Shown here piece after piece: positions 2 to 14,220 of a DNA stretch of 32,000 bases. This DNA is from Nitrososphaerota archaeon. Lineage in GTDB: Archaea; Thermoproteota; Nitrososphaeria; Nitrososphaerales; UBA57. Every line of letters starts with the position of its first letter. Positions within the stretch are counted from its first letter, which is position 1. The notes under the pieces were generated by a model. It was not told where the DNA came from. It made no database searches and saw only the letters and a list, made by a program, of their open reading frames with translations. The position numbers and the translations under genes were made by a program. Location: positions 30,272 through 62,271 of the forward strand of contig PAVW01000013.1 in the NCBI GenBank assembly GCA_002713205.1, in the 5' to 3' direction.

Positions 2-1069
2 GCAAAAAATTTTGCAATGGCTGCCACAAAAAACAATGTAAAAAGAATAATCTATCTAAGTGGACTTGTCAGTATTCCAGACAGGGAAATGTCAAAACAT
101 ATGGCAAGTAGGAAAGAAGTTGGCGAGATATTAAAGACATCAAAAGCTAAGGTTACAATTTTTCGAGCATCAGTAATAATAGGAAACGGAAGTGGAGGAT
201 TTAAAATGATGCATTACTTGGTTGAAAGATTACCTATAATGATATGTCCAAGATGGGTACTAACAAAATTACAACCAATATTTGTCGATGATGTAATATC
301 ATATCTTTTTGAAAGTCTATTTAAAAGAGAAACCGAAGGAAAAATGTTTGATGTGGGAGGCCCTGATACAATACCATACAAAGATCTGATGAAATTGTAT
401 GCTAAAAAAAATAATAAAACAATACGAATGATAATAATTCCATTTTTGAGTCTAAGATTAACATCCTATTGGGTTGACTTGATAACCCCAATGAAAAAGT
501 CACTCACCAGGCCTTTAGTAGAAGGATTAAAAAATGAATCTGTAATAACGGAGAATTCAATTAAAAAAATCATACCATTGAAATTGAAAGGAGTAGATCA
601 ATCATTGGATATTGCAATAGGTACGCAGATACAGAACCAGAAACATACTGCAAGAAAAGAAATTCTATTATCATATTTGCTAATTTTATTAGGAATTACA
701 GGTGCTGCGCATTATTGGGTAGATGAAAGAATAATGTCAATGCATCTTCTGGGACATATAAGTACAGGAATCTGGTTCTTATTGTTATTAGTTGGTTATT
801 TTTTTATAAAGAAAGGAGCTCGACTTGGAGCACTATTGGCAGGGATTGTTGGTTGGACTGCTGCATTGTTTTTGTTAATCGATAGCATGTATTTAATTTC
901 TTATTTGCCAAAAATTGGATCTTATACTGTAAGTAAAGGAATAGCAATTCTAGGTAATTATCCAGATGCAAATACTGTTTTATTGAATATAATGGGTTTG
1001 TTTGTAATTGCAATATTACTAGTTGTAGCACATTTTACATTTTATGATAAAAATAAAAACGTAAAATAA
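2..1069 (+). CDS. NAD(P)-binding epimerase/dehydratase (NmrA/atypical SDR)-like protein, 5'-truncated by the window edge, with a C-terminal multi-TM hydrophobic region
   Basis: The reading frame is open from base 2 (gca aaa aat ttt gca atg), so the ATG at 17 is probably internal. 'VKRIIYLSGL...FRASVIIG' resembles the middle and C-terminal part of extended SDRs, and the Rossmann N-terminus is missing. The last ~135 aa contain about 4 hydrophobic helices. Confidence 0.55.
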   Translation, partial: AKNFAMAATKNNVKRIIYLSGLVSIPDREMSKHMASRKEVGEILKTSKAKVTIFRASVIIGNGSGGFKMMHYLVERLPIMICPRWVLTKLQPIFVDDVISYLFESLFKRETEGKMFDVGGPDTIPYKDLMKLYAKKNNKTIRMIIIPFLSLRLTSYWVDLITPMKKSLTRPLVEGLKNESVITENSIKKIIPLKLKGVDQSLDIAIGTQIQNQKHTARKEILLSYLLILLGITGAAHYWVDERIMSMHLLGHISTGIWFLLLLVGYFFIKKGARLGALLAGIVGWTAALFLLIDSMYLISYLPKIGSYTVSKGIAILGNYPDANTVLLNIMGLFVIAILLVVAHFTFYDKNKNVK

Positions 1070-1122: not shown

Positions 1123-1698
1123 ATGATTGGGAAAATTCAAAGGATATCGGGCAATGTTAACAACTTTCCCACATACACTACACAAATAATGAATCTGGCA
1201 AACCAGAATGCCAAAGGAACAAGGCCTAAAGTAGTTGGACAGCTAACTGATTTAATTCAAGAATGTCCATATAATGAACACAAAAAATGGAAAGAATGGT
1301 ATCTTAACGAACAGCCCAATGCAATAGACAATGCAACCCAGAAAGTTCTTGATGGGGTTGAAAAGCTAAAAGATGGAATTAATAAAATAGATGAAAATAT
1401 GGTCCGATCTTGGGTAAAAGAATTAGTTATAGATAAGACTTTCATTGGTTTAAGATTACAAGAAGTAATATTAATAAAATTCTCAGAGATGTTGAAGACT
1501 AAGTATCGTTTAGCAACACCTGAACAGGAAAGCAAAGGTATAGATGGCTTTTTAGGAGATGTTCCTGTTTCGATAAAACCAGTTACGTATAAAATTAAGA
1601 AGTCGTTGCACGAAGATATAGATGTTAAAATGATTTTTTACGATAAAAAGAATGATGAAATTATTATTTCTGATGAATGTATAAATCAATTTTATTAA
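1123..1698 (+). CDS. Putative type II restriction endonuclease, partner of the adjacent methyltransferase
   Basis: 191-aa ORF convergent with a DNA methyltransferase, overlapping it by 4 nt at the 3' ends. It has a possible PD-(D/E)XK-like core '...QESKGIDGFLGDVPVSIKP' (D...S-I-K). The family could not be identified by eye. Confidence 0.45.
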   Translation: MIGKIQRISGNVNNFPTYTTQIMNLANQNAKGTRPKVVGQLTDLIQECPYNEHKKWKEWYLNEQPNAIDNATQKVLDGVEKLKDGINKIDENMVRSWVKELVIDKTFIGLRLQEVILIKFSEMLKTKYRLATPEQESKGIDGFLGDVPVSIKPVTYKIKKSLHEDIDVKMIFYDKKNDEIIISDECINQFY

Positions 1699-2795
1699 GC
1701 GTATTCAATCTCGAATATGTTATCCTTAATTTTGCTAAATGTCTTTACCATGGGTATGACCATTCTTGTTTCTTGTCTTGTCATTACTGGAAATTTATAT
1801 CTTTCATTAAAGTAACTTAGTTTTCCGTTTTCTTTTTCTCTTTTTTTAACGAAATCTAGATGTTGTTTAATTCTTGTATTGTTATATCCGTTTGCTAATT
1901 CTAAAAGATTATCCATACGTAGATTTATTATTTCCATGAAATTCGAATCTATCTCATATCCAATGCTGTTCCGTCCAGATGCCATAGCTCCAAGGGTAGT
2001 GGTACTCGTTCCCAAATATGGATCTAATACTACATCGCCCTGGACCGAAAACATGGTTATTAATCTATACGCTAACTCGAAGGGATAAGCAGCACTTCTT
2101 TCTCTAATGTTTTTATGGTTTAGTTTCTGTCTGTCACCCATTAAGCCTTCCCAAATGTCCGAAAACCATTTATTTCGTTCTTCCCAAAAAAAAGCACTTC
2201 TGTGTCTATTCGATTTTTCTAATTCGGTGTTAAACTCTCTTTTGGCCCCCTTTCTTAAAATTAAAATGTATTCATGTTCTAAAGTTACATAAGCTCCCAC
2301 TGGCAACATCCCAGAACCCATAAATTTGTTCGGTTTATTAGACTGCTTTCTCCAAAGAATGTCGGGTAAAACATGGAACCCTAATTCTGTGCAAAATGAT
2401 AATATTCGTGCGTGATTTGAATATAATTTAAAGGAATTATCTATTTTTCTGGTTGCATCACCAATGTTAATACAAGCAATACACCCAGGCTCTAAAACCC
2501 TATAAACTTCTTTCCAGACTTTATCTAGTTCTTGATGCATTAATTCAAAGGCCGAATCATCATCATAATCTGCAAGGGCTTTTTCTATATCTTTGTTCTG
2601 TTCTGAAAACATCTCATCCCACATCTCTATCATGGGATATGGTGGAGATGTAACAACAAATTGAATAGAATCATTGTCTATATCATTCATAATTCTACTA
2701 TCGTCTATGATTATTTTGTGTGATGTTTTGACACTCCCACTATTGTTTTCCAGTGAATTATTTACATAATAATCTATACTATGACTCTCTTCCAT
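1695..2795 (-). CDS. DNA methyltransferase, beta-class N4/N6 family (N6_N4_Mtase type), probably N4-cytosine
   Basis: Catalytic motif IV 'VVTSPPYP' lies near the N-terminus. The AdoMet motif I-like 'VVLDPYLGTSTTTLGAMASGRNSIGYEID' lies near the C-terminus. The IV-then-I order defines the beta class, and an SPPY-type motif is typical of m4C enzymes. Confidence 0.85.
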   Translation of the reverse strand: MEESHSIDYYVNNSLENNSGSVKTSHKIIIDDSRIMNDIDNDSIQFVVTSPPYPMIEMWDEMFSEQNKDIEKALADYDDDSAFELMHQELDKVWKEVYRVLEPGCIACINIGDATRKIDNSFKLYSNHARILSFCTELGFHVLPDILWRKQSNKPNKFMGSGMLPVGAYVTLEHEYILILRKGAKREFNTELEKSNRHRSAFFWEERNKWFSDIWEGLMGDRQKLNHKNIRERSAAYPFELAYRLITMFSVQGDVVLDPYLGTSTTTLGAMASGRNSIGYEIDSNFMEIINLRMDNLLELANGYNNTRIKQHLDFVKKREKENGKLSYFNERYKFPVMTRQETRMVIPMVKTFSKIKDNIFEIEYA

Positions 2796-2988
2796 CGTTC
2801 TGACTCCTTTTTCTTTGGCTTAACAACAATAATGAAATCCTTTTCCTCGTCATCTTATCTTCCAAGCTAAATAATCTCCCTTCTCAAGTTCAAACTGTTT
2901 AATAATACAAAGGGCATGGTAGTCCTGTTACACACTTTTTGTTTGTTTTATTCAGAATTATAGTCTGTCCATTAACCATGTTTAATAC

Positions 2989-3019
2989 TATGATTGTCTT
3001 TTATATGAATGAAATCATA
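2989..3019 (+). promoter_or_regulatory. 7-nt inverted repeat (TATGATT ... AATCATA) bracketing a TATA-like box (TTTTATAT, 2999-3006) upstream of the B12-binding-domain gene
   Basis: Read directly: tatgatt at 2989-2995 and aatcata at 3013-3019. The TATA-like element between them lies about 57 nt upstream of the ATG at 3063. Confidence 0.3.
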
Positions 3020-3062: not shown

Positions 3063-3917
3063 ATGGTATATATTCGAAATAAGCAAGTAAAAGGAAAAAA
3101 TTATGCATATCTAGTTCGTAGTGTTTGGAACAAAGACAAAAAATCCACTAGTCAACAGACAATAAAATATTTGGGAAGATCATCGAAAGTGACGATAGAT
3201 AATATTCCTGTAAGATTTCGGAATAATCCTAATGTAATCAAATTCATAGTTAGAAAGAAACACATACAACATGAAGATTTATCAGAATTAATTTATGCAA
3301 CACAAAAAGAAATCTTAATTAAATTATCAGAATCAGTGACAGTTGATTATACTCGGTTATATGAACAATATAAAAAAAATTTTTCCACTGTAGAATTTTT
3401 TGACAAGATAATTAAACCGATTCTCTATGATGTAGGAGACCGTTGGAAACAAAATAAATTACTCATTGGAACTGAGCATGTAATTAGTAACAGAATTAAT
3501 ACAGTTATTAAACAAACAATAACTCATAGAAAAAAAAGAACAAATTATAAAATTTTGATTTGTAATCCTACTGGTGAAAGACACAACATAGCGTGTAATA
3601 TATTAGAATCAGTATTAATCAACAATGGTTTCAATGTTTTTAATATTTCACCATCAACTCCAAGTGAAGATGTATTACAATACATAGATGAGATAAAACC
3701 GAACTTAATATTGATATCAATAACCTTACCCAATAACATTAAAGCGGGAATTAATTTGGTGGAAAGAACAAGTAATTCATGTAAAATACCTATAATAGTA
3801 GGTGGGCAAGCAATTAATTCTAAAAATTCAAATAAATTTTTATCAGCAACAGTAATGGATTCAAATAACTCATTTAACCAAATTGTGAAAAAAATAACAA
3901 TGATACAAAAAAGATGA
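3063..3917 (+). CDS. CarH-like cobalamin-binding protein (B12-binding_2 helical bundle plus B12-binding Rossmann domain) with a non-MerR N-terminal domain
   Basis: 'VGDRW(128)KQNKLLIGTE(138)H(139)' is a Wx9EH motif. 'NPTGERH(174)NIACN' is an ExH lower-axial-ligand motif. 'ISPSTP', 'LILISITLP' and 'IVGGQA' match the B12-binding Rossmann fold. The N-terminus 'KGKNYAYLVRSVWNKDKK...IKYLGR' is a basic beta-hairpin-like segment. Confidence 0.8.
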   Translation: MVYIRNKQVKGKNYAYLVRSVWNKDKKSTSQQTIKYLGRSSKVTIDNIPVRFRNNPNVIKFIVRKKHIQHEDLSELIYATQKEILIKLSESVTVDYTRLYEQYKKNFSTVEFFDKIIKPILYDVGDRWKQNKLLIGTEHVISNRINTVIKQTITHRKKRTNYKILICNPTGERHNIACNILESVLINNGFNVFNISPSTPSEDVLQYIDEIKPNLILISITLPNNIKAGINLVERTSNSCKIPIIVGGQAINSKNSNKFLSATVMDSNNSFNQIVKKITMIQKR

Positions 3918-4073
3918 TGGGGACGGCAGGATTTGAACCCACGATCTCCCGGTCACTGCTGCTCCAAAGGTGCATCATCCGTTATGTCAGTTACCTAATT
4001 ATACTATTAGCTTCTGGAGCCGTTAGCGGCACAATAATGTGCTGACGCCATAACCGAGCTAGGCTACGTCCCC
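3918..4073 (-). tRNA. tRNA-Trp (anticodon CCA) with two predicted introns: about 21 nt in the anticodon stem (after position 28) and 60 nt at the canonical 37/38 site
   Basis: On the minus strand: acceptor GGGGACG/CGTCCCC plus discriminator A; D arm GCCT-AGCTCGGTTA-TGGC; T arm GTGGG-TTCAAAT-CCTGC. Removing 81 nt restores anticodon stem TCCGG/CCGGG and loop CTCCAGA, giving a 75-nt mature tRNA without CCA. G1:C72 and A73 fit archaeal tRNA-Trp identity. Confidence 0.7.
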
Positions 4074-4142: not shown

Positions 4143-4745
4143 ATGACAAGTTTCGAATTCAAACCACTTTCACGTTCTTTTTACGATTCAAGTACAGTAC
4201 TAGTAGCAAAAAAATTACTAGGTAAATTAATTATCAGGAAGCTAAATGGACGGATTATAAGTGGAAGAATAGTGGAAACGGAAGCTTATACATCAGGTAA
4301 ACATGATGCTGCAAGTCATGCATGTAAAGGTATAACTGAAAGAAACAAAGTCATGTTTGGTAAAAATGGCATTTCTTACGTTTATTTTACATATGGAATG
4401 TATTTCATGTTTAATGTAGTAGCAAAGAAAAAAACAGAAGATGCAGGAGCTGTGCTAATACGTGCATTAGAACCAATTAATGGCATTAAAATAATGGAAT
4501 TAAATAGACATGTAAAAAATAAATTAAATATAACTAATGGTCCAGGTAAACTTACAAAAGCGCTTGTAATTGATAAGAAATTCAACGGTATAGATATGAC
4601 AAAAAAAGGGAAATTATATATCACAAACTTTGAACGAAGAAGAGAGGAAATATCAGCTTCTACAAGAGTTGGAATATCATCTGCTATGGATAAAAAATGG
4701 AGATTTTACTTGAAAGGAAACAAATTCGTGTCAAAAAAGGACTGA
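4143..4745 (+). CDS. DNA-3-methyladenine glycosylase (MPG/AAG family)
   Basis: 'AKKLLGKLIIR...GRIVETEAYTSGKHDAASHACKGITERNKVMFGKNGISYVYFTYGMYFMFNVV...VLIRALEP' matches the conserved MPG-family core. Confidence 0.85.
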   Translation: MTSFEFKPLSRSFYDSSTVLVAKKLLGKLIIRKLNGRIISGRIVETEAYTSGKHDAASHACKGITERNKVMFGKNGISYVYFTYGMYFMFNVVAKKKTEDAGAVLIRALEPINGIKIMELNRHVKNKLNITNGPGKLTKALVIDKKFNGIDMTKKGKLYITNFERRREEISASTRVGISSAMDKKWRFYLKGNKFVSKKD

Positions 4746-4870: not shown

Positions 4871-4989
4871 GTTGCCGGCCATAGCAATGGTGTTCCACCT
4901 GGTCCCATTCCGAACCCAGAAGTTAAGCCCATTGACGCTGTTGTGTTAGTTAGGTCCGAAAGGTCTTGCGAAGCAATAGTGCCGGCACA
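4871..4989 (+). rRNA. 5S ribosomal RNA; no 16S/23S rRNA gene is present in the window
   Basis: Terminal helix TGCCGGC (4873-4879) pairs with GCCGGCA (4981-4987). The conserved 5S core 'CCCATTCCGAACCCAGAAGTTAAGCC' is present, and GC is much higher than in the flanks. The exact ends are uncertain by about 2 nt. Confidence 0.85.
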
Positions 4990-5045
4990 TTTAATATTTA
5001 ACAAACCTTATTTTCGAGTATTAATTAATTTATAATCTATAACAA

Positions 5046-10786: not shown

Positions 10787-12429
10787 TAACAGTATATTTT
10801 GAAAGACTACTTTCAATGTTAAATGGAAATATTTCAAGAGAGGAACTAATTGATAAAATTCCATATCTAAGCTTAGATATTGAAGAAATTACTGATGATT
10901 ATATAAGAATTGAATACAATCCAAATAGACCTGATTTTTCGACTGATTATGGTCTTGCAAGAGCATTAAATAGCTTTCTTCAATTTGAATCAAAATTTGA
11001 TTCATATAATGTAAAGGAAAGTAATGTATCAGTAACTGTAGACAAATCAACTAGTAAAGTCAGGCCGTATATTGTTGCAGCATTAGTTAAAAACATCAAT
11101 CTAGATGATGAATCCATAAGGCAAATAATTAACATGCAAGAAGATCTTCATAACGGAATAGGAAGAAAAAGAAGAAAAATCTCGATAGGAATTCATAATT
11201 TTGATGTTATTAAACCTCCAATTTATTATAAAACGGTTAGTGAAAATTTTTCATTTGTTACATTAAATAATGCGAAATCGTCAACAATTCGGGAAATATT
11301 AGACAATACTGATGTAGGCAAGTCATATGGTCATATAATATCAGGAAATTCAATTTACCCAATTCTTGTCGATTCAGCAGATGGGGTTTTATCATTTCCA
11401 CCGATAATTAACGGTGATTTAACTAGATTAACAAATGAAACCAGTAATCTTTTTATTGATATAACAGGAACCGACTTTAATGCGGTGAATAATGCACTTT
11501 CTGTATTATTTACTACGTTAGCAGATGCAGGAGGTCAAGTGTATTCTGTTAAAGTGAATTATAGTGATCAAGTTTTTGTTACACCCAAAATCAATCCAAG
11601 TAAATTACCTCTTGATCTGTCATATGCAACATCATTGTTAGGACTTGAAATAAGCGAAAAAGAAGCTGTTAATTACTTGCAAAGATGTAGGATGAATTCT
11701 ATAATTGAAAATAATATAGTTATGGTAGAACCACCTCCGTATAGATTTGATTTAATTCATCCTGTAGATTTAGTTGAAGAAATCGCAATCGGATATGGAG
11801 TTGACAATATCACACCGACTGTACCTAGTACTGATCTAGCAGGTAAGCCAAATAGTAAACAACGAATAATTTCAGCGGTTAAAGAAGTTTTAATCGGTTT
11901 AGGTTTGATAGAAATAATGACATATGGATTAATTAGCAACGATAATTTAATGAAATCAAATATGGAAGATGAACAGATCAAAGTAATTGAAACAAAGAGT
12001 ATTGAGCATGAAATATTAAAAAAATCAAATATTCCTTCAATTCTTTATACGTTATCTCGTAATATACATAATTCCTACCCACAAAGAATTTTTGAAGTGG
12101 CAAAAATATTCAAGAAGTCAGAATCATTAATTATTGAACCATATCACGTTACAGTGGCTTTAGCACACGCTGAAGTTAATTTTACTGAAGGGAAATCTTT
12201 TCTAACTGCTCTGGGACGACAGTTATTTAATCGTCAATTTACAACAAGGAGAATAAATAATGCAGTGTTTTTGAATGGTAGATCTGCTGAGATACTTGAT
12301 TCTGATAAGACAAACATTGGAGTGGTTGGGGAAGTTCATCCAAAGGTTTTAGAAAATTTTTCTATCAGAACACCGGTAGTATTATTTGATATCAACTTAG
12401 AGAAATTAATCAAGTCAGAAATTACTTAA
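10777..12429 (+). CDS. pheT: Phenylalanyl-tRNA synthetase beta subunit
   Basis: The protein starts 'MPVVTVYFERL', the typical archaeal PheT N-terminus. I chose the ATG at 10777 over the ORF-track start at 10756. It overlaps the pheS stop by 10 nt. Confidence 0.9.
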   Translation: MPVVTVYFERLLSMLNGNISREELIDKIPYLSLDIEEITDDYIRIEYNPNRPDFSTDYGLARALNSFLQFESKFDSYNVKESNVSVTVDKSTSKVRPYIVAALVKNINLDDESIRQIINMQEDLHNGIGRKRRKISIGIHNFDVIKPPIYYKTVSENFSFVTLNNAKSSTIREILDNTDVGKSYGHIISGNSIYPILVDSADGVLSFPPIINGDLTRLTNETSNLFIDITGTDFNAVNNALSVLFTTLADAGGQVYSVKVNYSDQVFVTPKINPSKLPLDLSYATSLLGLEISEKEAVNYLQRCRMNSIIENNIVMVEPPPYRFDLIHPVDLVEEIAIGYGVDNITPTVPSTDLAGKPNSKQRIISAVKEVLIGLGLIEIMTYGLISNDNLMKSNMEDEQIKVIETKSIEHEILKKSNIPSILYTLSRNIHNSYPQRIFEVAKIFKKSESLIIEPYHVTVALAHAEVNFTEGKSFLTALGRQLFNRQFTTRRINNAVFLNGRSAEILDSDKTNIGVVGEVHPKVLENFSIRTPVVLFDINLEKLIKSEIT

Positions 12430-13025
12430 GAATCCCTGATAGAAATTCGTTTCACGATCACTTTATCATTTGGATTATCAAGATTATCTCTAGGGACATT
12501 AACTATTTTATCAGCGACATCCATACCTTCAACTACCTTGCCAAAAACCGTATATTGCTTATCAAGAAATGGAGAATCAGAAACAACAATGAAAAACTGA
12601 GAACCAGCACTATTCGGATCATTAGTTCTTGCCATTGAAACTATTCCTCGTACATGACTGATATCATTAAATTCAGCATTTATTGTATAACCTGGACCGC
12701 CTTGACCATGACTGCTTCTGTCATCACTTTTAGTATTAGGGTCGCCACCCTGAATCATAAATCCAGGAATTACACGATGAAAGGTTGTGCCGTTATAAAA
12801 TCCATCATTTGCGAGTTTAATGAAATTCTCAACATGCCCTGGTGATTTATCAGGAAAGAGCTCAATCACTATATTGCCAAAATCAGTCTCAATAACAGCT
12901 ACTGTGCTCATTGTATTAACTGAGTCAGAGTCATTATTAAATGCAAAAAAGTATACAGCGCCAATTAGAACTAGCAAAGCAATAAATCCGCCTATCATTT
13001 GTGTTCTGTTATTACCACTAGACAT
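12426..13025 (-). CDS. Peptidyl-prolyl cis-trans isomerase, cyclophilin type, with an N-terminal membrane anchor or signal
   Basis: 'FHRVIPGFMIQGGDP...GIVSMARTNDPNSAGSQFFIV' is the cyclophilin core. The hydrophobic 'MIGGFIALLVLIGAVYFFAF' precedes it. I chose the ATG at 13025 because the GTG at 13088 abuts a TATA-like 'ttatata'. Confidence 0.88.
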   Translation of the reverse strand: MSSGNNRTQMIGGFIALLVLIGAVYFFAFNNDSDSVNTMSTVAVIETDFGNIVIELFPDKSPGHVENFIKLANDGFYNGTTFHRVIPGFMIQGGDPNTKSDDRSSHGQGGPGYTINAEFNDISHVRGIVSMARTNDPNSAGSQFFIVVSDSPFLDKQYTVFGKVVEGMDVADKIVNVPRDNLDNPNDKVIVKRISIRDS

Positions 13026-13094
13026 AAAGTAAGGAAAGACACGATTGTTATTTATTTCTTTAAAAATACATAAATTAGAAAAACGCACTATATA

Positions 13095-13275
13095 ATTTGA
13101 CTGTATTAAGCACTGAGACGGCCGATTACGAGTTAAGTATAAACATTATACATCGATGATTAGTTGGCCACCCAGCAGTGTTACAGGTCACAAAAACCCC
13201 GATTTAAGAAGGCCTATCAAGTTAAGCTAATTTAGCGAAACGATGAGATATTTCTGTCAGAGGCGGGGTACAATC
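13095..13275. other. GC-enriched intergenic island with no convincing ORF; candidate structured ncRNA of unknown class
   Basis: By hand count, about 42% GC over 13111-13270, against visibly more AT-rich flanking spacers. A potential closing helix ACCCCG (13196-13201) / CGGGGT (13264-13269) is present, along with several GGCC-containing segments. Confidence 0.2.
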
Positions 13276-13368: not shown

Positions 13369-14220
13369 TTGAATCGAGATGAATTATCCAGAGCATTAGA
13401 ATTACGTTCAAAGGATTATAAAGAAAGATTAGATGATAAATGGGAAAAAGTTCTTGAGAGTCACAAGTGGTCAAGTTTTTATGAACCGTTAAGATATGCA
13501 ACTAAAGACGGTAAAAGAATTCGACCTTTGATTCTTATGTTAGCTGGTGAAAGTGTAGGAATTCCTGGAGGTAAAACTGACTTAGCTGCTGTAGCGGTAG
13601 AATTATTGCATACGGAATCAATAATTCATGATGACATAATAGATAACCAAATACAAAGACGAAACAAGGATTCGTTTCATCTTCGATATGGTAATCATAC
13701 AGCCTTATTAACTGCTGATTTTGTTTTTGGTATTATTCTCGAAATAGCATCACGATATAATGATCCACGTATAGCAAAAGAACTATCTTTAGCTGCATTA
13801 AAAATGTGTGAAGGGCAACAGAAGGAATTAAATGTTAATTCTAGAAGAATCCAATGGATAGAATATCTCACTGTAATTAGTCAAAAGACAGCATCACTAT
13901 TTCAAACATCTTCAAAGTTAGGTGCTATTATTGGTGGTGGAAATGAAAGCGAGATTAATGCATTAGCGAATTATGGCCTAAATTTAGGCATAGCATACCA
14001 AATCCATGATGATATACTTGATTGGGAAGAAGATGATAAATTTTTAGAATCAACACAAGATAAAAGGATACAAGAAAACATTGTAAGTTTAAAAAAACTC
14101 AGAGAGCACAGCACATTATACTCAGAAAATGCAAAAAGACAATTAGATAAAATTAAAGAATCAGATTATAAAGAATTTTTATATTATCTGGCTGATTTTA
14201 CAGTTAAACGAGATTATTGA
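13369..14220 (+). CDS. Polyprenyl diphosphate synthase (geranylgeranyl diphosphate synthase-like)
   Basis: First Asp-rich motif 'LLHTESIIHDDIIDNQIQRR' and second 'IHDDILDW'. The apparent start is TTG. Confidence 0.85.
   Translation: MNRDELSRALELRSKDYKERLDDKWEKVLESHKWSSFYEPLRYATKDGKRIRPLILMLAGESVGIPGGKTDLAAVAVELLHTESIIHDDIIDNQIQRRNKDSFHLRYGNHTALLTADFVFGIILEIASRYNDPRIAKELSLAALKMCEGQQKELNVNSRRIQWIEYLTVISQKTASLFQTSSKLGAIIGGGNESEINALANYGLNLGIAYQIHDDILDWEEDDKFLESTQDKRIQENIVSLKKLREHSTLYSENAKRQLDKIKESDYKEFLYYLADFTVKRDY

Follow-up and report, generated by a model that had tools for sequence, protein, structure and literature searches.

A large part of the nitrification in the sea and in soils is the work of ammonia-oxidizing archaea. 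They are also major producers of cobalamin and are inhibited by light, and we know of no light sensor in this group. How such organisms might perceive light is the question raised by a gene in the 32,000-nucleotide stretch of Nitrososphaerota DNA analysed here (the window). The gene encodes a 284-residue protein that joins a cobalamin-binding module to an N-terminal beta-sheet domain, and we regard this protein as a strong candidate for light detection by light-sensitive ammonia-oxidizing archaea. The open reading frame (3063..3917, forward strand, 284 residues) and its residues match the initial annotation exactly, AlphaFold2 models the whole protein with a pLDDT of 86.7, and the same architecture occurs in 486 homologs. 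Its parts are listed below, each with the evidence for it.

3063..3917, forward strand: gene of the 284-residue protein, an N-terminal beta-sheet domain followed by a CarH-type cobalamin-binding module (open reading frame, ATG start, Pfam, AlphaFold2)
3063..3260, forward strand: N-terminal domain, residues 1-66, presumed DNA-binding head (AlphaFold2, invariant residues, shared hosts)
3270..3518, forward strand: four-helix bundle, residues 70-152, with G125xxW128 and E138-H139 (secondary structure, CtMerR and photocobilin alignments, family invariance)
3549..3911, forward strand: Rossmann-type B12-binding domain, residues 163-283, with G171-E-R-H174, S196xxxP200, S219-x-T221 and G247-G248 (Pfam PF02310, alignments, Foldseek)

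The cobalamin-binding module

Read directly from the sequence, the segment DRWKQNKLLIGTEH contains Trp128 (tgg, 3444-3446) and Glu138-His139 (gagcat, 3474-3479), and the segment GERHNIA provides His174 (cac, 3582-3584), which lies 35 residues from His139. Two Pfam models exceed their gathering scores: B12-binding_2 (PF02607, E 7.8e-5) over residues 99-149 and B12-binding (PF02310, E 2.7e-9) over residues 163-251. Among NCBIfam models the CarH equivalog NF052513 ranks first (E 1.8e-14); it places residues 104-270 on model positions 107-269, and this three-residue offset sets Trp128, Glu138, His139 and His174 on CarH Trp131, Glu141, His142 and His177. The match scores 53.7 bits against an equivalog threshold of 400, which is not reached, and only the B12 module aligns. 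With HMMER, the same four residues align with Trp156, Glu166, His167 and His204 of the AdoCbl photoreceptor CtMerR (PDB 8JBS). The NF052513 offset agrees with the correspondence to CarH residues that the initial annotation had drawn for the Wx9EH motif and His174. The four-helix bundle, through Trp128 and Glu138-His139, would cap the adenosyl group in the upper axial position.

The module also carries the motifs described for such domains. The classical B12 motif, ExHx2Gx41SxV/Tx22-27GG, in which the histidine is the lower axial ligand (PMC8156234), reads E172-x-H174-x2-A177-x41-S219-x-T221-x25-G247G248, with Ala177 at a glycine position that is occupied by Gly, Ala, Ser or Pro in orthologs. 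The SignatureFinder signature of light-responsive cobalamin domains consists of GxxW, EH, GxxH and GxxxP (PMC11796333); G125DRW128, E138H139 and G171ERH174 are present and the fourth element is S196PSTP200. Across orthologs the proline of this element is invariant, while its glycine is Ser or Thr in most and kept in some (P0082, P0085), and no direct contact of that glycine with AdoCbl has been reported (PMC11796333). Thirteen positions are invariant in 22 orthologs of 39-87% identity, namely G125, W128, E138, H139, G171, E172 and H174, along with S198, P200, S219, T221, G247 and G248. The Wx9EH motif is found in 119/120 of the homologs listed and in 37/42 diverse full-length representatives. 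Given this conservation in orthologs and homologs, the motif match exceeds chance.

Structural comparison points to the same group of proteins. The nearest relatives of solved structure (photocobilins, CtMerR and CarH) are each a demonstrated B12 photoreceptor module. Foldseek matches the B12 module to CarH, CtMerR and photocobilin structures with a probability of 1.00, and TM-scores are 0.64-0.66 to 8j2w and 8jbt (rmsd 1.8-2.6 Å). A family profile run against the PDB ranks photocobilins first (E 2.5e-20), followed by CtMerR (1.6e-17) and then MetH (7e-14), and in the profile alignment MetH has Phe and Leu-Gln at the Trp and Glu-His positions. From this ranking and the missing Trp and Glu-His of MetH, the C-terminal 200 residues are supported as a CarH/photoreceptor-type cobalamin module, as the initial annotation had proposed, and not one of the methionine-synthase or methyltransferase type.

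Each of the known photoreceptors differs from the protein in its accessory parts. The photocobilins SasPcob (8J2W/8J2X) and AbDPcob (8J2Y; PMC10979010) are the best match both by profile and by Foldseek (rmsd 1.8-2.0 Å over about 210 columns) and conserve the AdoCbl signature residues, but they have a biliverdin-binding region at the C-terminus, in some cases with a diguanylate cyclase, and no DNA-binding head, whereas the 284-residue protein ends directly after its Rossmann domain. The B12 domain of CtMerR from Chloracidobacterium thermophilum (8JBS/8JBT; PMC11796333) is the best single-sequence match in the PDB (E 2.4e-11), aligning residue for residue at G-x-x-W, EH and G-x-x-H with a TM-score of 0.63-0.66, but it sits behind a MerR head and its GxxxP element reads G-P-N-T-P in place of S-P-S-T-P. 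With CarH and class I LitR proteins (Thermus thermophilus, Myxococcus xanthus, Bacillus megaterium), the protein has in common the four-helix bundle plus Rossmann module, the Wx9EH cap, the lower axial histidine, the 35-residue His-to-His spacing and the classical B12 motif, at a sequence identity of 16-19% and the same 53.7 versus 400 bits for NF052513. The one-component regulator plan is also alike, with the sensor C-terminal to a (here presumed) DNA-binding head.

Some automatic annotations call homologs "methanogenic corrinoid protein MtbC1", which would make the protein the corrinoid carrier of a methyltransferase system. Methionine synthase and the corrinoid proteins MtaC, MtbC and MttC do share the overall fold and bind cobalamin in the His-on, DxHxxG-type manner, there are weak NCBIfam matches to pyl_corrinoid, MtgC, MtbC and MtaC (E 1e-8 to 1e-6), the fold resembles that of MttC (7xcn), and JGI uses the name for some homologs. 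Those matches, however, reach 24-34 bits where the cutoffs are 215-450, and superposition on MttC gives an rmsd of about 9 Å and a TM-score of 0.39, compared with 0.63-0.66 for photoreceptor modules. The carriers and methionine synthase lack a DNA-binding head and occupy a different genomic context, the latter with Phe and Leu-Gln where the Trp and Glu-His stand, and no methyltransferase genes lie in the neighbourhoods examined. The Wx9EH cap, the additional basic N-terminal domain and an operator at the gene's own promoter, described below, further oppose such a role. With NCBIfam scores, structural comparison and neighbourhoods all against it, we rejected the carrier as extremely improbable.

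The N-terminal domain

The initial annotation had noted that the N-terminus is not of the MerR type, and this is borne out: residues 1-100 yield no match to MerR or to anything else in Pfam or NCBIfam, and the domain is predicted as an all-beta, three-stranded sheet. Modelled as an isolated domain by AlphaFold2 (pLDDT 94.7), it has long antiparallel strands at residues 2-9, 12-23 and 28-39, followed by short turns with the invariant Ile48-Pro49 and a helix at residues 56-66. Residues 1-42 hold 11 Lys/Arg against one acidic residue, and R5, K7, V9, K10, Y14, Y16, L17, V18, S20, W22, Q31, K35, Y36, L37 and G38 are invariant. This sheet stands where CarH has its MerR winged helix.

An hmmsearch with a profile of residues 1-62 (alignment A2) against 1.84 billion proteins returns 591 proteins at E <= 1e-3. 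The profile matches an IS1634 transposase (P0267, E 7.7e-8; itself NF033559 at 1.6e-63), the HNH proteins P0225 and P0226 (about 1e-10) and an AbiEii protein (P0245, 4.9e-9). A likeness to transposase N-termini had been pointed out in the initial annotation, and the domain is indeed homologous to the N-terminus of the IS1634 transposase. The shared pattern is [FVY]-[IV]-R-x-K-x-[IV]-K-x-x-x-Y-x-Y-L-V-x-S/N-x-W/R...K-Y-L-G, and while the IS1634, HNH and AbiEii proteins fuse this domain to DDE, HNH or nucleotidyltransferase catalytic parts, in the 284-residue protein it precedes a cobalamin sensor. Foldseek finds no significant known DNA-binding fold for it (best E 0.31 in the PDB and 0.07 in BFVD), and the searchable literature and databases yielded neither a Pfam or NCBIfam model of the domain nor a solved structure or a publication on it. 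The domain is presumed, from its basic character and its other hosts, to be a DNA-binding head of a new beta-sheet type. Such a reading would propose a DNA-recognition role for a widespread unnamed domain of IS1634 transposases and HNH endonucleases.

The operator and the proposed regulator

In orthologous loci, a conserved operator adjoins the TATA box of the B12 gene. As a consensus it reads TTAGCACTAG-N9-TTAGCAYYAG-TTAAATA, and the ATG follows 28-30 nt beyond the start of the TATA box. In 34/79 species loci the 100 bp upstream of the gene contain an exact TTAGCACTAG, and in 63/79 a copy with at most one mismatch; its density is 4.3 per kb upstream of the gene and 0.10 per kb in the remainder of these loci. 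Spacing between same-strand pairs is 19 bp in 53 of 70 cases, and an operator pair is present at -120..-1 in 40/79 loci, compared with 11 of 1473 random 120-bp windows. The range covers Nitrosopumilus, Nitrosarchaeum, Nitrosotenuis, Nitrosocosmicus and Nitrososphaeraceae. As in CarH, the operator is a direct repeat overlapping the promoter, but it has two 10-bp repeats 19 bp apart where CarH has contiguous 11-bp repeats, and it lies in an archaeal host with TATA/BRE promoters, unlike that of the bacterial CarH.

The operator is assigned to the 284-residue protein only because of its location at that protein's own promoter, and we infer that the protein itself binds it. The initial annotation had suggested a B12- or light-responsive regulator with a different DNA-binding head; that the head differs from MerR stands, and its role as a DNA-binding regulator now has strong indirect support from the conserved operator. 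It is also conceivable, if improbable, that the protein is an AerR-like co-regulator without DNA binding of its own, with the N-terminal domain making protein or RNA contacts and the operator belonging to another factor. The PDB matches include AerR (7te2, E 8.4e-9), and the N-terminal domain has no structural match to a DNA-binding fold. Against a co-regulator of this kind stand the strongly basic domain with its invariant R5, K7, K10 and K35, its place at the head of proteins that recognise DNA (IS1634 transposase and HNH endonucleases), and an operator kept at the gene's own promoter over family-level divergence, as is typical of DNA-binding factors that regulate their own genes.

Sites are also found beyond the gene itself. 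A mirrored operator pair adjoins the TATA box of a divergent NmrA-like gene, and 55 exact sites were counted in the locus flanks, against about 1.2 predicted by base composition. Flank sites precede recurrent families, including CrtI/HpnE-like, TspO and small membrane-protein genes. Sampling of the regulon covered the locus flanks and 120 metagenome stretches, in which the genes behind the operator encode oxidoreductases of the SDR and FAD types, TspO or small membrane proteins. By this footprint, the predicted regulon comprises the gene itself and the adjacent NmrA/HpnA-like membrane oxidoreductase, together with a CrtI/HpnE-like FAD oxidoreductase, TspO, a protein resembling class III cyclases and several small proteins that are membrane-bound or secreted. 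This predicted set of targets suggests a photo-oxidative-stress response.

On balance, the best explanation is that the protein is an AdoCbl-dependent, probably light-relieved, autoregulated one-component repressor of ammonia-oxidizing archaea. The Rossmann domain is predicted from its motif to bind cobalamin with His174 as lower axial ligand, and alignment to CtMerR, CarH and photocobilins suggests that Trp128, Glu138 and His139 cap a 5'-deoxyadenosyl upper ligand, which would make the ligand AdoCbl. CarH needs AdoCbl to bind DNA (PMC8156234). By analogy, the AdoCbl form may oligomerise head-to-tail into dimers or tetramers; in CtMerR, a proline of the adjacent monomer contacts the adenosyl group (PMC11796333), and the invariant Pro200 occupies the GxxxP proline position. 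The basic N-terminal domains, as footprinting and the domain's other hosts suggest, would bind the 10-bp TTAGCACTAG repeats 19 bp apart, and the proximal repeat, overlapping the BRE/TATA recognition region, would block transcription initiation in the dark. Green or near-UV light would then cleave the Co-C bond, loosening the oligomer and releasing the promoters. The model for this is the behaviour of CarH and class I LitR proteins, which bind AdoCbl and, on light-induced Co-C cleavage, pass from a dark tetramer to a light monomer and lose DNA binding. Residue 129 is Lys, while its TtCarH counterpart, His132, serves the bis-His light state; the residue after the Trp is likewise basic in CtMerR, where it is Arg. 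With Lys129 in place of His132, any light state is expected to resemble that of CtMerR and not that of TtCarH.

A light-independent role has also been considered, in which the AdoCbl-bound protein represses the same operator at plentiful cobalamin, as a sensor of B12 status, a stand-in for a riboswitch, and light is not the signal. Ammonia-oxidizing archaea synthesise cobalamin, and we know of no B12 riboswitches in archaea. Ammonia oxidizers universally have the family, and among them are soil Nitrososphaeraceae and Nitrosotenuis that are not obviously illuminated; its occurrence in groundwater and soil lineages with scarce light would fit this role equally well. The conserved B12 motifs and the AdoCbl requirement of CarH for DNA (PMC8156234) are compatible with it too. 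Behind the operator, however, the sampled flanks and stretches hold no gene for cobalamin biosynthesis, salvage or transport, nor a B12-dependent/independent isozyme pair. In the literature consulted, descriptions of Wx9EH are confined to CarH and to light-responsive modules related to it (PMC8156234, PMC11796333). Protein-bound AdoCbl would be photolabile in any case, so the two roles are not exclusive. We consider a purely B12-sensing protein rather unlikely.

A wider version of the light-relieved repressor can be offered more tentatively, and we consider it possible without leaning towards it: that a previously unrecognised AdoCbl photoreceptor-repressor is present in all ammonia-oxidizing archaea and some Thermoplasmatota, with a beta-sheet head shared with, or co-opted from, IS1634 transposases, and that light releases a photo-oxidative-stress regulon (an HpnA-like SDR membrane protein, a CrtI/HpnE-like isoprenoid oxidoreductase and TspO). 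An oligomer would sit in the dark on paired TTAGCACTAG repeats over BRE/TATA, and the four sites of a divergent promoter might be bridged by a single tetramer. The literature search found nothing relevant on a CarH-type receptor of archaea or ammonia oxidizers, or on the N-terminal domain, most subscription-journal papers lying outside its scope. If true, no earlier light sensor of ammonia-oxidizing archaea would be on record in the searchable literature, and the photoinhibition of marine nitrification would gain a molecular point of entry. If confirmed, it would widen the reach of B12-based photoreception to include Archaea and TATA/BRE promoters. A CarH-type module in the core genome, with a predicted operator and regulon, makes light or B12 perception directly testable, and the protein could serve as a compact green-light optogenetic module with a different DNA-binding specificity.

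Distribution and the locus in this strain

A relative is encoded by 280 reference species representatives, and 80/80 of the loci listed belong to ammonia-oxidizing archaea. An NmrA-like gene adjoins the B12 gene in 57/79 loci (35 on the same strand and 22 divergent), so that the linkage persists despite inversion. Because of this spread and the conserved synteny, the regulator gene is a core gene of ammonia-oxidizing archaea. The initial annotation had suggested an accessory gene from its position between a restriction-modification (R-M) pair and a tRNA gene; the 280-species spread, the synteny and relatives free of the R-M genes rule this out, and it is the R-M pair that is variable. For the tRNA, ARAGORN reports none and Rfam one. 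The upstream features in the window are as follows.

2..1069, forward strand: NmrA-like/NAD_binding_10 oxidoreductase partner, C-terminal 355 residues, its start outside the window (68% identity to L009:4526-5869)
1123..2795: strain-variable R-M insertion between the partner and B12 genes (Pfam; absent in relatives)
1123..1698, forward strand: MjaI-type restriction endonuclease (Pfam RE_MjaI, 3.9e-64)
1695..2795, reverse strand: N6_N4 DNA methyltransferase (Pfam N6_N4_Mtase, 1.3e-40)
2979..3007, forward strand: native promoter remnant (alignment with L092)
2982..2991, forward strand: degenerate proximal operator half-site TTAATACTAT (alignment with L092)
3000..3007, forward strand: TATA-like box TTTATATG (alignment with L092)

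The partner oxidoreductase, whose Pfam family was assigned on a full-length ortholog, has a hydrophobic, apparently membrane-spanning C-terminal region. At the same spot in close relatives, the loci L091-L093 have no R-M genes and L094 has the methyltransferase only; the R-M pair is an accessory element outside the regulator system. Avoidance of CTAG was considered as a cause of operator loss, through a CTAG-specific, MjaI-type R-M system, and rejected, with 65 CTAG observed against 70.5 expected.

In the window, no TTAGCACTAG with two or fewer mismatches lies in the 300 bp upstream of the gene, operator pairs at 17-21 bp are absent throughout, and tblastn finds no match within the window to any of 11 candidate regulon families. 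The 32 kb contain three one-mismatch sites, which is chance level (28/100 shuffles reach three); two of the three sit in a cyclophilin-like coding region. Direct repeats upstream of the gene are weak. Homology with R-M-free relatives begins at the promoter remnant (2979..3007), and L092 has CTAGTGCTAA-TTAT-TTAAGCCTAG directly 5' of TTTATATG. The R-M insertion has displaced the distal operator repeat. With that repeat replaced, autoregulation in this strain may be weakened.

A photoreceptor-type cobalamin module

The initial annotation had recognised a CarH-type signature in the open reading frame at 3063-3917 (+), which has an ATG start and encodes 284 amino acids. Direct reading of the window sequence returned its residues and coordinates exactly, and both expected Pfam domains lie above their gathering scores:

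3444-3446, +, codon of W128
3474-3479, +, codons of E138-H139
3582-3584, +, codon of H174
Residues 99-149, B12-binding_2 (PF02607)
Residues 163-251, B12-binding (PF02310)

Among NCBIfam models, the CarH equivalog NF052513 ranks first (E = 1.8e-14), aligned over the B12 module only (protein 104-270, model 107-269), and its three-residue offset places W128, E138, H139 and H174 on CarH positions 131, 141, 142 and 177, as had been proposed. The score of 53.7 bits does not reach the equivalog cutoff of 400 and the MerR head of CarH/LitR proteins is absent, so the protein lies outside that family. The protein carries the classical B12 motif, ExHx2Gx41SxV/Tx22-27GG (PMC8156234), Ala177 replacing Gly, and the GxxxP element reads SxxxP, its Pro invariant. 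The signature residues are unchanged in orthologs of as low as 39% identity, and occur in 119 of 120 homologs among those listed and in 37 of 42 diverse representatives. Automatic labels on some homologs include “light-induced transcriptional regulator”, “MtbC1” and “B12-binding domain-containing protein”.

In a single-sequence search, the closest solved relative is CtMerR (8JBS, E = 2.4e-11), an AdoCbl domain whose light response was shown by experiment (PMC11796333); GxxW, EH and GxxH align with it residue for residue. A family profile built from 22 sequences ranked the photocobilins 8J2X and 8J2W (2.5e-20), CtMerR (1.6e-17) and 8J2Y (1.9e-14) above methionine synthase (7e-14), with corrinoid proteins, CarH (2e-11) and AerR (8e-9) also below 8J2Y. 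The AlphaFold2 model (pLDDT 86.7) comprises a four-helix bundle (70-152) and a Rossmann domain (163-283), for which photocobilin and CtMerR are the top Foldseek matches (TM 0.63-0.66, rmsd 1.8-3.2 Å). These nearest structures and the conserved signature agree with the photoreceptor-type module first suggested. In the profile alignment, methionine synthase (MetH) has Phe and Leu-Gln at the positions of the family's W and EH, and MttC superposes poorly (TM 0.39, rmsd ∼9 Å); that the protein is a methyltransferase corrinoid protein is hardly conceivable.

After the Trp, TtCarH has His132, which gives the bis-His light state, and CtMerR has Arg (PMC11796333), whereas the 284-aa protein has Lys. 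A representative search returned four distant full-architecture members (P0246, P0247, P0255 and P0219, one from Thermoplasmatota); in three, His directly follows Trp, as in TtCarH W131-H132, so these could form a bis-His state. Judged by this residue, the ammonia-oxidizer proteins, unlike these three, presumably cannot.

A basic N-terminal domain

The N-terminal domain (residues 1-66) matched no Pfam or NCBIfam model. AlphaFold2 predicts a three-stranded sheet (pLDDT 94.7) of long antiparallel strands (2-9, 12-23 and 28-39), after which come short turns and a helix, consistent with the original view that this head is not MerR. It is strongly basic, with R5, K7, K10, Y14, Y16, L17, V18, S20, W22, Q31 and K35-Y-L-G38 invariant. 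Searching 1.84 billion representatives with a profile built on residues 1-62 gave 591 proteins at E <= 1e-3. Among them, in addition to members of the B12 family, are the IS1634 transposase P0267 (NF033559, 1.6e-63), which bears out the suggested likeness to transposase N-termini, the HNH endonucleases P0225 and P0226, the AbiEii nucleotidyltransferase P0245, a tandem duplicate (P0216) and a family of ∼170 aa. Mainly because it is fused to enzymes obliged to recognise DNA, we infer that the domain is a candidate DNA-binding module. An AerR-like co-regulator, with no DNA binding of its own, is improbable.

A core gene with a conserved putative operator

At E <= 1e-3, 486 database proteins share the full architecture, which one Thermoplasmatota representative also has. 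The suggested survey of distribution found relatives in 280 GTDB species representatives, and each of the 80 loci listed belongs to ammonia-oxidizing Nitrososphaeria (Nitrosopumilus, Nitrosarchaeum, Nitrosotenuis, Nitrosocosmicus and Nitrososphaera), and some genomes have two copies. The protein is 97-100% identical over many contigs, and is therefore maintained. Of the 79 loci whose upstream sequence is long enough, 57 have the B12 gene next to an NmrA-like/NAD_binding_10 gene, which encodes 450-485 aa with a hydrophobic C-terminal region and lies on the same strand in 35 loci and divergently, across a shared 200-500-bp intergenic region, in 22; the linkage has thus outlasted inversion. In the window, two restriction-modification (R-M) genes separate the partners:

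2-1069, first open reading frame, C-terminal part of the partner gene (68% identity to the NmrA-like gene)
1123-1698, +, MjaI-type restriction endonuclease
1695-2795, -, N6_N4 methyltransferase

Both R-M genes are missing in relatives of 87% identity (L091-L093), and a 98% relative (L094) has the methyltransferase without the endonuclease, so the pair is an accessory, strain-variable insertion. The window shows no shortage of CTAG, with 65 sites against 70.5 expected. The B12 gene, once thought possibly accessory, is instead a core gene of ammonia-oxidizing archaea with conserved synteny.

Upstream of the orthologs we found a putative operator that the initial annotation did not include: TTAGCACTAG-N9-TTAGCAYYAG, followed at once by a TATA box (TTAAATA or TTATATA) that starts 28-30 nt before the ATG.

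Operator occurrence at B12-gene loci
Exact 10-mer in -100..-1: 34/79 species loci
10-mer with <=1 mismatch in -100..-1: 63/79 species loci
Site density: 4.3 per kb upstream, 0.10 per kb elsewhere in the same loci
Same-strand pairs with exact 19-bp spacing: 53/70
Pair in -120..-1: 40/79 loci
Pair in random 120-bp windows: 11/1473

In divergent loci, a mirrored pair on the other strand (TTAGCACTAG-N8/9-TTATCACTAG-TTTAAATAA) abuts the NmrA-like TATA box. The operator persists across the range from Nitrosopumilaceae to Nitrososphaeraceae, and one marine clade carries an inverted pair, likewise next to the TATA box. The operator's position over BRE/TATA at the gene's own promoter suggests the usual layout of an autoregulated archaeal repressor.

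The window itself holds no operator pair within its 32 kb. Homology with an R-M-free relative, which has CTAGTGCTAA-TTAT-TTAAGCCTAG just 5′ of TTTATATG, starts at ∼2979, and comparison shows the distal repeat displaced by the insertion. Autoregulation may be altered in this strain, where the following elements are found:

2982-2991, degenerate half-site TTAATACTAT, the sole repeat kept
3000-3007, TTTATATG, 3′ of TTAATACTAT

The N-domain also occurs by itself, as proteins of 73-87 aa (P0327, P0319, P0330, P0276, P0312 and P0364), on Nitrosocosmicus-like and Nitrososphaeraceae contigs (up to 117 kb for the first three). Truncation or frameshift may account for some; the 73-aa form, present on several contigs, might compete for the same operator without having a sensor.

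Putative regulon and mode of action

Base composition predicts ∼1.2 exact operator sites in the flanks of the 80 loci; 55 are present. Candidates comprise recurrent gene families behind paired sites <=4 kb from the B12 gene and those from a metagenome scan with a strict pair pattern (at least 120 stretches).

Regulon candidates
Locus flanks: NmrA-like gene (best NCBIfam similarity HpnA-like, sub-cutoff)
Locus flanks: 450-aa Amino_oxidase-family FAD oxidoreductase (sub-threshold HpnE, phytoene-desaturase and CrtD similarity)
Locus flanks: Guanylate_cyc-like protein
Locus flanks: DUF6789
Locus flanks: type-II NADH-dehydrogenase-like protein
Locus flanks: secreted protein, ∼300 aa
Locus flanks: small membrane proteins
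Metagenome: 203-aa membrane protein, at least 24 cases
Metagenome: 83-aa Cys-rich protein, at least 11 cases
Metagenome: 190-aa protein (weak DICT hint, E 0.048), at least 6 cases
Metagenome: TspO/MBR (E 6.9e-51), at least 2 cases

Four bacterial SusD-like cases among the metagenome matches listed were taken as chance hits. The ∼190-aa family with the operator pair upstream (L106, L196, L210 and others; L055:965-1570) is the one with the sub-threshold DICT-domain hit, and DICT is listed among domains fused to light-responsive cobalamin-binding domains (PMC11796333).

These genes resemble a stress response involving membrane, redox and tetrapyrrole functions, and in this partial sampling of locus flanks and metagenome stretches no cobalamin-synthesis or transport gene stands behind the operator. 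We read this combination as favouring light over B12 homeostasis, and a B12-status sensor acting in the dark is unlikely. On balance, we lean towards an AdoCbl-dependent, light-relieved repressor, CarH-like in action through a different DNA-binding head. The protein would presumably bind cobalamin with its adenosyl group and oligomerise, the AdoCbl-bound form repressing via the N-domain until light, the probable signal, relieves repression as in CarH. The earlier reading as a regulator is largely supported, and extended by operator, regulon, synteny and core distribution. In the literature, incompletely covered, we found no description of an archaeal Wx9EH receptor, this N-domain or the operator.

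In marine oligotrophic clades (L005, L009, L012-L017), genes for 1-Cys peroxiredoxin (AhpC-TSA), TusA and DsrE-like proteins lie divergently beside the NmrA-like gene, and L005 has a TTATCACTAG-like site in the intervening region; through these, the regulon may connect to peroxide defence.

Further features of the window were also noted:

3918-4073, -, tRNA gene directly past the B12-gene stop codon (Rfam RF00005, 35.7 bits)
4871-4990, +, 5S rRNA gene standing alone (Rfam, 84.8 bits)
13100-13250, G+C-rich patch inside an AT-rich divergent intergenic region

ARAGORN, unlike Rfam, reported no tRNA in the window; the gene spans 156 nt and so probably holds a long intron. The G+C-rich patch, between genes named by eye as cyclophilin-like (12426-13088, -) and polyprenyl-synthase-like (13369-14220, +), matched nothing in Rfam, even with E relaxed to <= 1, and could be an undescribed small RNA. 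The 5S rRNA gene is flanked by a methylpurine-DNA glycosylase gene (4143-4745) and a DUF1512 gene.
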